Shown piece after piece: positions 145 to 3,428 of a DNA stretch of 3,437 nt (the first letter of the stretch is position 1; every line of letters starts with the position of its first letter). The position numbers and the translations under genes were made by a program. Source of the stretch: Escherichia coli (GTDB lineage: Bacteria; Pseudomonadota; Gammaproteobacteria; Enterobacterales; Enterobacteriaceae); the NCBI RefSeq assembly GCF_003334815.1, contig NZ_QOWO01000082.1. One strand, given 5' to 3'. The notes below the pieces were generated by a model. That model saw only the letters and a list, made by a program, of their open reading frames with translations, was not told the origin of the DNA and searched no databases.

Positions 145-486
145 GTGCCAATGGCTTCTAAAAAATTTTACTCAGATGATGACATCCAGCTGGCAAAAGC
201 TGCCTTATCGGAATTGCCGGACCTCACCGCTCAACGGAAAACATTGCGTGATTTTCTTGATGCCATTCGTGATGACATCATTGTCCTGGTAAGGACAAAG
301 GGTTATACACTGGCAGATGTTCGTGACACGCTTAAAAATGCAGGGTATGAAGTAGGAGAGAAGGCACTTCGTGACATTATTCGGGAAGCAGAATCGAAAA
401 AACCATCCCGCCGTTCTTCCTCTAAAACAGCACCTAAAAAGACAGATTCAGGCAGGAAAGATGGCATCGATATGAACAACAATTGA
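145..486 (+). CDS. Hypothetical small protein (112-113 aa) with Lys/Arg/Ser/Thr-rich C-terminal tail; possibly DNA-binding, function not recognised
   Basis: Open frame 145..486 ending at TGA 484-486. The GTG at 145 is only ~4 nt from GGAGA (136-140), so ATG 151 (spacing ~10 nt) is the more likely start. The tail KKPSRRSSSKTAPKKTDSGRK resembles tails of small nucleic-acid-binding proteins. No family confidently recognised. Confidence 0.6.
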   Translation: MPMASKKFYSDDDIQLAKAALSELPDLTAQRKTLRDFLDAIRDDIIVLVRTKGYTLADVRDTLKNAGYEVGEKALRDIIREAESKKPSRRSSSKTAPKKTDSGRKDGIDMNNN

Positions 487-571: not shown

Positions 572-1423
572 TCAGACTCGTGGCGGCAATGCACCAGGAT
601 AATACCGTGCAATAACATCATTCAGTTTTTCAACAAGGTCAGAACGCTTAAAGACAATGTGTACGGTCCCTTTCTGGTAGCCACGTACCGTAAAATATTC
701 CCCTTCTAACAGCTTACCGACATTGTCGCCGTTCCCGAGAAACTCACCATACTGCGCCCCGATGCTGCTCCGGAAGTCAGGAACGTTGCGCCCCTCCAGC
801 AGATAAAACGGACGTACCAGGTCATCCAGTGCCTCCCTTCCGCTGCAGTCCAGCGTCACACGCCCGTTACTCCAGCGGTACAGCAGGTTTTCAATAATGA
901 TTTTCTTGCCCAGACGGCAGGGATTGTTGGTTCTGTAATCCCATGACAGTTTCCTGTAGACATCAATCAGTCCTTGTTCAAATGTCTGCATCTTACTGGC
1001 ATTCAGATGGCGAAAAGTTGCCAGTACATTGTCCAGGGTGATTTCAGGACAGGTGTCGCTCATCAGCTGGCTGTTCCACTCATCACGCTGGCATGAACTC
1101 ATGAAGGTGTACATGCCCGTATCTGTCATCAGGCGGTCCCAGATTTTCCGGTCGGCAAGACGGGTGATATTCCTTTTCGCTTCTTCCGGCTTATCCATGC
1201 GACGAACGGAATCAGTCACGCAGTCTTCAAACCCGTAAAGAAAAATATCACCTGACGCATCGAGCAGAATCTTGCGCGCTGTCGCCAGGCATTCCATCGC
1301 CTGCATGAATAGTGCAATACCTTCGTTACGCTGCGCGATGATGCGGTCGATAGCCACAGACGGAATAACATCTGTCGTGCCGGCAGTATTCAGGTCAGCA
1401 GTGGGTAAAGTCTGATTCATCAC
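572..1423 (-). CDS. Conserved hypothetical protein, 283 aa, function unknown
   Basis: Long uninterrupted frame (852 nt) on the - strand with GAGGAG (complement of 1428-1433) upstream. ATG at 1420..1418 gives ~8 nt spacing and is an equally plausible start to GTG at 1423..1421. Ends at the shared terminator. No nucleotidyltransferase, methyltransferase or nuclease signature recognised by eye. Confidence 0.75.
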   Translation of the reverse strand: MMNQTLPTADLNTAGTTDVIPSVAIDRIIAQRNEGIALFMQAMECLATARKILLDASGDIFLYGFEDCVTDSVRRMDKPEEAKRNITRLADRKIWDRLMTDTGMYTFMSSCQRDEWNSQLMSDTCPEITLDNVLATFRHLNASKMQTFEQGLIDVYRKLSWDYRTNNPCRLGKKIIIENLLYRWSNGRVTLDCSGREALDDLVRPFYLLEGRNVPDFRSSIGAQYGEFLGNGDNVGKLLEGEYFTVRGYQKGTVHIVFKRSDLVEKLNDVIARYYPGALPPRV

Positions 1424-2262: not shown

Positions 2263-2283
2263 AGCCTGGCAGAATGCCAGGCT
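2263..2283. other. Hairpin (8-bp stem AGCCTGGC / GCCAGGCT, 5-nt loop) between the convergent HTH gene and the orphan small ORF
   Basis: Perfect inverted repeat overlapping the stop codon (TAG, 2284..2282) of the - strand small ORF. No U-tract, so it may be a transcript-stabilising stem or weak terminator. Confidence 0.3.
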
Positions 2284-2488
2284 ACTGCTCATCAGGAAAC
2301 AGCTTTTTCAGTTCTTCACCGGAAAGTCCCGTGACCTCCTGAATCCGTTCCGGCGGCCAGCCTATATCCCGCAGCCGGCAGGCTATTTCCCGCGCCACTT
2401 CAAGAGCCCCTTGTTTAAAACCTTGTTTAAAACCTTCTTTAAAACCCTCGTCGAAACCTTTCTGTATAAGACGTTCTGCAATCGTCAT
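2282..2488 (-). CDS. Orphan small protein (68 aa) paralogous to the C-terminal tail of Rpn nucleases (RpnS-like), with tetrapeptide repeats GFDE-GFKE-GFKQ-GFKQ
   Basis: Its first residues MTIAERL are identical to the internal segment MTIAERL of the upstream Rpn protein. The remainder follows the same pattern (KG...ALEvAreIA...g..pEqIqe.TGLS.EELKK). Nucleotide similarity around the ATG: 2470-2488 vs 2681-2699 is 17/19 identical. The SD is weak (GGAG ~13 nt upstream) and an intrinsic terminator lies just upstream, so expression is uncertain. Confidence 0.55.
   Translation of the reverse strand: MTIAERLIQKGFDEGFKEGFKQGFKQGALEVAREIACRLRDIGWPPERIQEVTGLSGEELKKLFPDEQ
2411..2458. repeat. In-frame 12-bp tandem repeat, 4 units (TTGTTTAAAACC x2, TTCTTTAAAACC, CTCGTCGAAACC), encoding the GFK(Q/E)/GFDE tetrapeptide repeats
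   Basis: Two identical adjacent 12-mers, a third with one mismatch and a fourth diverged, all in codon register on the - strand. A substrate for slipped-strand copy-number change without frameshift. Confidence 0.85.
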
Positions 2489-2510
2489 GCTGTTTGCTCT
2501 GCTCCTGCTG

Positions 2511-2537
2511 GCAAAAAGCCCGGCATTTTGCCGGGCT
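2511..2537 (-). terminator. Rho-independent terminator immediately downstream of the Rpn gene (- strand)
   Basis: On the - strand: AGCCCGGCA-AAA-TGCCGGGCT (7-8 bp GC stem, 3-nt loop) followed by TTTTT. It starts 13 nt after the rpn stop codon (2552..2550). Confidence 0.65.
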
Positions 2538-2549
2538 GTGATGCTCTCA

Positions 2550-2699
2550 TCAGTGAATGACTTTTTTCAGTTCAGCTTCGGAAAGTCCGGTGGCCTGCTT
2601 AATCTGCTCAGGTGTCATCCCCATTTTCTGAAGCTGACGCGCAATGGCAAGGGCTTTTTCAAGCGCACCTTTCTGCTCAAGACGTTCTGCGATTGTCAT
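2550..2699 (-). CDS. Putative intragenic small protein (49 aa, RpnS-like) translated from an internal in-frame ATG of the Rpn gene
   Basis: Internal ATG at 2699..2697 in the rpn frame, preceded by GAGGAT (complement of 2706-2711) with 7-nt spacing. Product would be MTIAERLEQKGALEKALAIARQLQKMGMTPEQIKQATGLSEAELKKVIH. Consistent with reported intragenic antitoxins of Rpn nucleases (from memory). Confidence 0.45.
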   Translation of the reverse strand: MTIAERLEQKGALEKALAIARQLQKMGMTPEQIKQATGLSEAELKKVIH

Positions 2700-3428
2700 C
2701 AGTTTATCCTCATGCTGCGGCAGGCGCTCGGCCAGCGCCCGCATAAATTCCGGTGATACAGAGTCCCCTGCGTTAACGATGTAATGAATCAGAACACGCA
2801 CCTGCTCGTCTGAAATTTCCACCATGACCTGCGGGAGTTTGTCCAGCAGCTCCATCATGTCACGATGGCGGATATGCTTCATCAGCAGCGTCAGTGCGGC
2901 CATCCGGCGATGGTTCATGATTTCATTGTCATCAACGACAGTGATATCAACCAGCGGAAACGGCTTTGTGTATATTTTAGCCGCAAGTGACGGATTCTCA
3001 AAACAGTCCAGCCAGTTCATGCTGTACGGATACGGGCTGCGCTCACCATGATAGAACAGCACCGGAATCACCAGTGGCAACGTTTTGTGCTGCTCCAGAT
3101 GTCTCTGCATCGCCGCCACACTGTAACGTAACATGCGGAAAGGCATGTACAGATTTTCGGTGCTCTGGTGCTCGATGAGCGTATAAACATAGCCATCTTC
3201 ACCCCCGGTGGTTTTCACGCTCCAGAGGATATCGCTGGCGTACTGATGCAGGTCCGGCTCAACAAAGGTGGCGGGTTCCAGCTTCAGCGTGGACAGGTCG
3301 CACAACTGCCGGTACTCCGCCGGAAGATGCAGTTCCAGAAAATCTCTGGCGACGTCGGGATTCGCCAGGAACGACCGGAACGCGGCATCATGCGGCGTGG
3401 GCGTTGTGGTGTTTTTCTTCTTACTCAC
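2550..3428 (-). CDS. Rpn family recombination-promoting nuclease / YhgA-like putative transposase (PD-(D/E)xK nuclease), 292 aa
   Basis: N-terminus TPHDAAFRSFLANPDVARDFLELHLP and the core DILWSVKT...YVYTLIEHQS match the YhgA/Rpn family (Pfam Transposase_31-like) as I recall it. The C-terminal tail ...AERLEQKG...TGLSEAELKK is the typical Rpn tail. GTG start at 3428..3426 with GGAGG (complement of 3433-3437) 4 nt upstream. Gene is complete, but its promoter lies outside the window. Confidence 0.9.
   Translation of the reverse strand: MSKKKNTTTPTPHDAAFRSFLANPDVARDFLELHLPAEYRQLCDLSTLKLEPATFVEPDLHQYASDILWSVKTTGGEDGYVYTLIEHQSTENLYMPFRMLRYSVAAMQRHLEQHKTLPLVIPVLFYHGERSPYPYSMNWLDCFENPSLAAKIYTKPFPLVDITVVDDNEIMNHRRMAALTLLMKHIRHRDMMELLDKLPQVMVEISDEQVRVLIHYIVNAGDSVSPEFMRALAERLPQHEDKLMTIAERLEQKGALEKALAIARQLQKMGMTPEQIKQATGLSEAELKKVIH
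2706..2711 (-). promoter_or_regulatory. Internal Shine-Dalgarno (GAGGAT) inside the Rpn coding sequence, serving the internal ATG at 2699
   Basis: - strand reads GAGGATAAACTG-ATG; AGGA lies 7-8 nt upstream of the ATG, which is near-optimal spacing. Confidence 0.4.

Follow-up and report, generated by a model that had tools for sequence, protein, structure and literature searches.

The tandem array at positions 2411-2458 of the window (the whole 3,437-nt stretch of Escherichia coli DNA that was analysed) is very probably a hypervariable four-residue repeat of the C-terminal 'S' domain of Rpn proteins, carried by an RpnSs-type gene downstream of a full-length Rpn nuclease in the leading region of conjugative plasmids of the IncI complex. 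The array is of a kind that has already been published, in which variable repeats, stand-alone copies and pairing by repeat number go together; since the principle is known, our finding mainly confirms a real system. Modestly new are the occurrence of up to three tail cassettes in series and a GF-type tail that lacks a full-length partner.

Four tandem units of 12 bp, two of them identical, make up the 48 bp of the array. On the plus strand these are TTGTTTAAAACC (2411-2422), again TTGTTTAAAACC (2423-2434), TTCTTTAAAACC (2435-2446) and CTCGTCGAAACC (2447-2458). The gene is read from the minus strand, where the units appear in coding order as GGTTTCGACGAG, GGTTTTAAAGAA, GGTTTTAAACAA and GGTTTTAAACAA and are translated as GFDE, GFKE, GFKQ and GFKQ, with the identical pair on the promoter-distal side. 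All units are in codon register with the open reading frame at 2282-2488(-): G11 begins at 2458 and the array accounts for residues 11-26. The sequence-only reading from which this analysis started had described four 12-bp units that lie in frame, include one identical pair and encode GFKQ-type tetrapeptides, and its coordinates and content are correct in every detail.

Tandem Repeats Finder places the repeat at 2409-2446 (period 12, 3.2 copies, 96% matches, score 69) and, in a second call, reports a looser array with period 24 at 2409-2460. The longest self-match at a lag of 12 nt (with at most one mismatch) measures 26 nt, and 1000 dinucleotide-preserving shuffles gave 7.8 on average and never more than 14; the array can thus not be attributed to chance. 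It is followed by a degenerate terminal unit, GALE, at 2399-2410(-) (GGGGCTCTTGAA), which in the alignment behaves as an invariant right-hand anchor and is kept even in alleles with zero units. Five glycines (residues 11, 15, 19, 23 and 27) are spaced four apart in the N-terminal helix in a G-x-x-x pattern. A GxxxG-type glycine stripe spans residues 10-30 of the small protein (2459-2399 of the window).

The gene that holds the array encodes 68 aa (MTIAERLIQK, the four units, then GALEVAREIACRLRDIGWPPERIQEVTGLSGEELKKLFPDEQ) and is a stand-alone paralogue of the C-terminal tail of the adjacent nuclease. A BLASTP comparison of both tails gives an E-value of 4e-13 and 45% identity (29 of the 64 aligned positions, 16 of which are gap); outside the repeat, 29 of the 48 non-gap positions are identical. 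The C-terminus of TIGR01784 (the Rpn family model, positions 223-273) also matches the small protein (E 1.7e-5, 24.8 bits), and the shortfall relative to the curated cut-off of 52.1 bits is expected for a fragment of 68 aa that is compared with a model of 273 positions. The start, MTIAERL, is the same as that of the intragenic tail of the nuclease and of RpnA-S in PDB entry 7TH0. Newer RefSeq records call the product an 'RpnC/YadD family protein' and others a 'hypothetical protein', and accession PF27070 is attached to many homologues; a Pfam scan of the small protein with a copy that does not contain PF27070 gave nothing significant, and an Rfam scan of the window matched no family. In the AF2 monomer model (mean pLDDT 69.5) helices are placed at residues 3-14, 16-22, 28-41, 46-53 and 57-63, with low confidence over the repeat helix (pLDDT 57-59). 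Direct PDB matches consisted of designed helical-repeat and PPR proteins, found through the ...GLS-EEL... helix, and were set aside as uninformative. By homology, the small protein is a putative antitoxin.

The small gene begins 61 nt past the stop codon of the nuclease and on the same strand. A hairpin that resembles an intrinsic terminator is located between the two at 2513-2537(-) (AGCCCGGCA-AAA-TGCCGGGCT, then T5), and an AGGAG Shine-Dalgarno-like sequence at 2502-2506(-) precedes the ATG by 13 nt. The hairpin is not listed by a simple terminator scan, though it is clear in the RNA fold of 2489-2560(-), which has a free energy of -26.5 kcal/mol (z -3.5) and a GC-rich stem of 9 bp. Many database entries for the gene (P0003-P0015 and others) are 85 or 89 aa long and have their start called 21 codons upstream (MRVSQPGKMPGFLSSRSRANS...). 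Given that this extension reads through the terminator hairpin and is closed by a stop codon in the window, the longer forms are probably mis-called starts. The HTH gene and the small tail gene converge, and a second hairpin, at 2263-2283 (AGCCTGGCA-GAA-TGCCAGGCT), separates their stop codons. This hairpin is nearly the same as the hairpin at 2517-2537 upstream of the small gene, the stems differing by one compensatory base-pair change, and it may be that copies of a single hairpin mark the ends of the cassettes.

The neighbouring gene (2550-3428(-), 292 aa) encodes RpnL, a full-length Rpn (YhgA-like) nuclease. Against TIGR01784 the protein reaches 168 bits, which exceeds the cut-off, and its match to the NCBIfam RpnA model (E 5e-99) stays under the equivalog cut-off. 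RpnC of K-12 has the same conserved D...IEHQS nuclease motif. Residues 244-288 match the 49-aa RpnA small protein of 7TH0 from its Met1 onwards (E 1.6e-4), and GAGGA at 2707-2711 lies 7 nt ahead of the internal ATG. Judged from its sequence, the internal start with the last 49 residues (M244-H292, 2550-2699(-); MTIAERLEQKGALEKALAIARQLQKMGMTPEQIKQATGLSEAELKKVIH) is the gene-within-a-gene arrangement known for RpnS.

The repeat site in the tail of the nuclease (2667-2672(-), between K253 and G254) is empty in the window, whereas other plasmids carry one to six GRQE/GRME units there. At the point homologous to the array the tail reads ERLEQK directly followed by GALEKA, which agrees with the earlier observation of zero units in the full-length neighbour. 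The claim that was built on it, namely that the two paralogues already differ in repeat count, stands as far as the numbers are concerned (zero against four). Nonetheless, these are not two states of one array: the tails belong to diverged cassette types, GRQE/GRME and GFxx, that vary independently.

Variation in copy number is evident from finished plasmids. A systematic sample of PLSDB gave 37 full-length matches to a 309-nt query, and their spans form a ladder: 261 nt in six plasmids (zero units in the small gene), 272-274 nt in seven (one unit), 286 nt in twelve (two), 298 nt in four (three), 309 nt in five (four), 321-322 nt in two (five) and 345 nt in a single plasmid (seven). An allele of 334 nt, with six units, is present in the set of complete E. 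coli genomes. When six finished plasmids are aligned with the window, the arrays account for all differences in length, and the same regularity is seen in the core lengths of the small-protein clusters (60, 64, 68, 72 and 76 aa) and in the nuclease-tail spans in plasmids (316, 328 and 340 nt). For one allele (P0001), duplication of 24 bp (GFKE-GFKQ) is the best explanation.

Similar patterns are obtained for metagenomes, from which a conserved 23-mer retrieved 105 loci; once the window and five finished plasmids were added, 98 loci had both arrays. The counts, which derive partly from short-read assemblies (for arrays of at most 84 nt) and follow the same ladder as the finished plasmids, are zero units in the small gene for 25 loci, one for 7, two for 29, three for 12, four for 18, five for 6 and seven for 1. 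The nuclease tail holds zero to six units of the GRQE/GRME type in these loci, and the two arrays occur in 44 distinct combinations. Counting 12-bp units across strains, the check put forward together with the idea of a length-variable tail, thus bears that idea out (zero to seven units, in steps of 12 nt) and refutes invariance. As about a quarter of the loci have zero units, the array itself is dispensable.

The rate of change can be assessed relative to the surrounding DNA. Of 12 sets of loci whose 660-nt flanks are identical, 5 differ in unit number (for instance 3/4/5, 6 vs 5 and 4 vs 5), which means that the arrays change faster than a flank of about 660 nt gains one substitution. This polymorphism, which was seen between isolates, reflects a rate above that of point substitution and is not a phase-variation rate. 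Within close lineages the GRQE/GRME array varies far more than the GF array (for example from 1 to 6 units at a constant count in the small gene). Lineages with a GF array of zero units stay at zero, as expected if expansion requires a repeat to slip on.

A tandem repeat within a reading frame, with a copy number that outpaces the divergence of its flanks, might point to a classical contingency locus, where reversible slippage at high frequency within a clone turns expression on and off. We consider such phase variation highly improbable. The unit is 12 bp and the length differences among the alleles observed are always multiples of 12 nt, so that every change is in frame and on/off switching is excluded; moreover, the number of copies is low (zero to seven, with only two perfect adjacent units in the window), the ATG start of the small gene is found in 100 of 100 loci and its core (52 aa without the repeats) is intact in 93 of these. 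Of the label 'contingency-like' that had been given to the array, a copy number that varies, and does so faster than the flanks, is borne out, and classical on/off switching is not supported.

At first sight the two arrays seem to be coupled, with a raw Spearman correlation of -0.445 (p 4e-6) between the units in the nuclease tail and those in the small gene. We rejected this candidate: permutation within flank-defined lineages (at most 1% divergence) reproduces the correlation (p 0.38-0.83), and the between-lineage means of both arrays give a rho of -0.22 to -0.29 (p 0.04-0.19). The anticorrelation can thus mostly be attributed to shared ancestry and is not a robust signal.

That the anticorrelation vanishes once relatedness is controlled would also be in line with a neutral minisatellite in a left-over cassette, i.e. 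debris of tail replacement or duplication in which frame-neutral slippage drifts without selection for diversity. Further points can be raised for such a relic: in-frame changes stay in frame without selection, zero-unit alleles are common (25 of the 98 loci), the small gene is situated behind a terminator-like hairpin, and cluster searches (see below) found no cognate full-length partner. The state of the gene itself speaks differently. Across 47 core alleles its pN/pS ratio is approximately 0.27 (that of the nuclease tail is 0.14), and the upstream module of hairpin and AGGAG is conserved before every free-standing cassette; in combination with the intact core and the conserved ATG this argues against a decaying remnant and indicates that the small gene is under purifying selection. 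In addition, the segment has been kept in 1341 of 5426 complete E. coli genomes (about a quarter), where it is nearly always plasmid-borne, and production of the K-12 analogue YpaA/RpnESs can be detected (PMC10400941). Drift without selection in a relic is therefore a possible explanation that the conservation statistics disfavour, and we rate it as rather unlikely. Selection for diversity in tail length, as the sequence-only reading had proposed, is something that we infer.

The relation between the tail types becomes more apparent in nine related metagenomic loci with a three-tail architecture (L015, L035, L041, L042, L075, L082, L085, L101 and L111). Here a nuclease with a GIQQ tail (3-7 units) is followed by a stand-alone GRQE/GRME cassette and then, in eight of the nine, by a GF cassette; in L085 a single downstream cassette is a hybrid of the GRQE/GRME and GF types. 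The tail type of the nuclease in the window thus exists as a free-standing gene elsewhere. A common module of about 60 nt, made up of hairpin, T-run and AGGAG, precedes each stand-alone cassette and continues into ATGAC(G/A)AT(T/C)GCAGAACGTCTT, and a block of about 20 nt (ATGACNATNGCAGAACGTCTT) is common to all cassettes. A single deletion would be enough to turn the three-tail form into the layout of the window (nuclease body with a zero-unit GRQE/GRME tail, then the GF cassette).

The GF-type tail is an orphan, without a full-length partner in the databases searched. No full-length Rpn protein with this tail is present among the best 120 clusters at 90% identity, which are all of at most 111 aa. 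A profile-free scan of 1.84 billion cluster representatives gave 35 matches with only one of Rpn size (38% identity), though representatives clustered at 50% identity can hide tail variants and absence there is weak evidence.

It might be argued that the stand-alone tails, instead of being spare copies, have a working role in a system of serial cassettes, which we hold to be unlikely. One nuclease body would then be accompanied by one to three tails (GIQQ, GRQE/GRME and GF), each with an array that expands and contracts. If the shared module were the site of a deletion or of recombination, the body would become joined to the following tail, which would re-key the pair of nuclease and antitoxin, and displaced or orphan tails, as the first to enter during conjugation, could possibly act as decoy antitoxins against the Rpn nucleases of the recipient or of rival plasmids.

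The plasmid setting bears on the latter idea. An IncI-gamma/K1 plasmid of E. coli 2011C-4315 matches the window at 100% identity and has the gene order nikB-nikA-(oriT)-mobC-like-DUF4942-HTH-small tail-Rpn-...-ardA-...-psiA-psiB. From this order, with the locus between oriT/nikA and ardA and some 2.4-3.5 kb from nikA/oriT, it follows that the array is in the leading region; the tail gene and the nuclease share their strand with ardA, psiA and psiB. The segment is present in 2004 PLSDB plasmids, mostly conjugative, of Escherichia, Salmonella, Shigella and Klebsiella. NCBIfam searches gave no match for the DUF4942-domain protein (572-1423(-), 283 aa) and none for the 113-aa protein annotated as 'MobC' beside oriT (145-486(+)).

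The 576 nt that separate the DUF4942 and HTH genes (1424-1999) have very strong single-stranded DNA structure on both strands (z -6.3 and -8.7) and include a long imperfect hairpin at roughly 1515-1690. In a plasmid leading region, this makes the stretch a candidate for a single-strand promoter or ssi (Frpo-like) element; in some related plasmids a 'hypothetical protein' of 198 nt is annotated within it. Two direct repeats of 44 nt (1888-1931 and 1955-1998, 80% identical), each with a AAAGTGAA-N5-TTCACTTT palindrome, lie directly upstream of the gene for the 83-aa HTH regulator (2000-2251) and are probably a pair of operator sites, as predicted from their arrangement.

Early delivery by conjugation would allow the small protein to act as an orphan antitoxin or anti-defence decoy against the Rpn nucleases of a recipient or competitor, with a repeat number that tracks the target tails. 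The location between oriT and ardA, on the strand of ardA, psiA and psiB, fits such a role, and leading regions are enriched for toxin-antitoxin genes and orphan antitoxins, which have been proposed to counter the TA systems of hosts and competitors (PMC11541004). The count in the small gene also seldom equals that of the nuclease in cis (6 of 98 loci against 14.2 expected, when phylogeny is ignored). Nonetheless, we find the decoy role quite unlikely, because a full-length Rpn with a similar tail did not emerge from the cluster searches and a complete toxic nuclease at the same spot fits a defence or addiction module equally well. A study of early conjugation of pESBL (IncI1) names six induced operons in the leading region and does not mention Rpn, though not all leading-region genes are induced there. 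We dropped the chromosomal RpnC of K-12 as a specific target, since tail identity is only 31%.

For the hypervariable S-domain repeat, our preferred reading, the following course of events can be proposed. Units would be gained and lost in steps of 12 or 24 bp by replication slippage or by unequal exchange between adjacent direct repeats, as the repeat structure suggests. Each unit would add four residues to helix 1, which is the dimerisation helix in the crystal structure of RpnA-S, and tail length would in turn set the pairing partner, on the basis of experiments with RpnC where only equal repeat numbers neutralise. If pairing is matched by length, as for RpnC, the nuclease in the window would be expected to be under the control of its own zero-unit intragenic RpnS. 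The four-unit GF-type protein would not be expected to be its cognate inhibitor, given an identity of about 60% in the non-repeat core and a different type and number of units. The suggestion made from the sequence that the tail confers specificity of toxin/antitoxin pairing matches the RpnC experiments as well as the general proposal of PMC10400941; for the protein in the window it would hold by analogy. None of the results points to evasion of phage inhibitors, the other purpose that had been suggested.

Overall, the repeat is a natural example of a protein 'key' with a length that is tuned in steps of four residues. To this, the IncI locus contributes a natural series of alleles that is very large, with two or three independent arrays per locus and the 44 combinations in 98 loci. 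Such a series could be used to study the cause of the variation, the binding partners of the orphan tails and the question of whether a defence nuclease with spare tails near oriT affects plasmid establishment. The remaining interest is in the serial cassettes, the orphan tail and the position close to oriT.

Several known systems show a resemblance to the array. Organisms differ in how many units they have in the FliH/YscL helices with the pattern AxxxG(xxxG)mxxxA (PMC2674601), and complex formation by Yae1/Lto1 is mediated by the deca-GX3 motif (PMC4523923); in both families GxxxG repeats of variable length bring about the association of helices. FliH models match the small protein at E-values of 9e-4 to 6e-3 (15.7-18.6 bits, against cut-offs of 192-293) and Pfam Yae1_N matches residues 9-28 only (18.7 bits, i-E 0.0014). 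The glycine at every fourth residue explains these weak matches; membership of either family was rejected, as the scores are far below the thresholds and the resemblance is one of repeat pattern, not of homology. Moreover, the variation in FliH is found between species, whereas that of the small protein is found among near-identical strains.

With contingency loci the array has in common that a tandem repeat in a coding region evolves faster than its surroundings. Phase variation in the contingency loci of Neisseria and Haemophilus typically involves long arrays of 1-8-bp units. The 12-bp unit, in contrast, never breaks the frame and occurs in low copy number, and it is length that is modulated rather than expression.

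A closer likeness in form is offered by HsdS of the type I restriction enzymes EcoR124I and EcoR124II, in which, according to the passage on these enzymes in PMC10400941, two or three copies of a TAEL repeat alter specificity. Going by that passage, both cases concern a repeat of four residues (12 bp) that stays in frame, lies in a helical spacer and changes specificity without switching the gene off. The TAEL repeat sets the spacing of two DNA-recognition domains, whereas the Rpn repeat is thought to set protein pairing, and the two are non-homologous.

The closest relatives are the Rpn systems themselves, whose nucleases are YhgA-like and of the Transposase_31/PDDEXK type. The rpn genes encode a toxic nuclease, RpnL, and a small antitoxin, RpnS, that is made from an internal start (Zhong et al. 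2023 PNAS, PMC10400941). RpnS is a compact three-helix bundle with a long first helix, and in RpnA-S this helix forms the dimer interface. 'Dodecamer repeats' of four residues vary within species at 8-20 residues past Met1, and one extra KGIE repeat in RpnC-S or RpnC-L abolishes neutralisation unless it is present in both (PMC10400941). According to the same paper the tail also occurs downstream as 'a separate gene', RpnSs (e.g. YpaA), on chromosomes and plasmids and with varying repeats, and the plasmid-borne RpnP2 defends against T-even phages. Zhong et al. call the mechanism of repeat expansion unknown, suspect a phage-derived driver and mention tail fusions in general terms; their text mentions neither IncI plasmids nor the leading region, and our literature search found no later paper that extends it.

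The small gene resembles RpnS and RpnSs in several respects. Its product is a copy of the nuclease C-terminus that starts at the methionine of MT(I/L)AERL, the repeats begin at residue 11 and number zero to seven among plasmids and metagenomes, and it forms a separate gene just downstream of rpn that is plasmid-borne, a case also covered by PMC10400941. It differs in that the GF-x-x cassette (...ALEVAREIACRLRD...PDEQ) has no full-length nuclease as its carrier in the databases searched, and in that up to three tail types follow each other in series, each stand-alone one behind the same module of hairpin and Shine-Dalgarno sequence.
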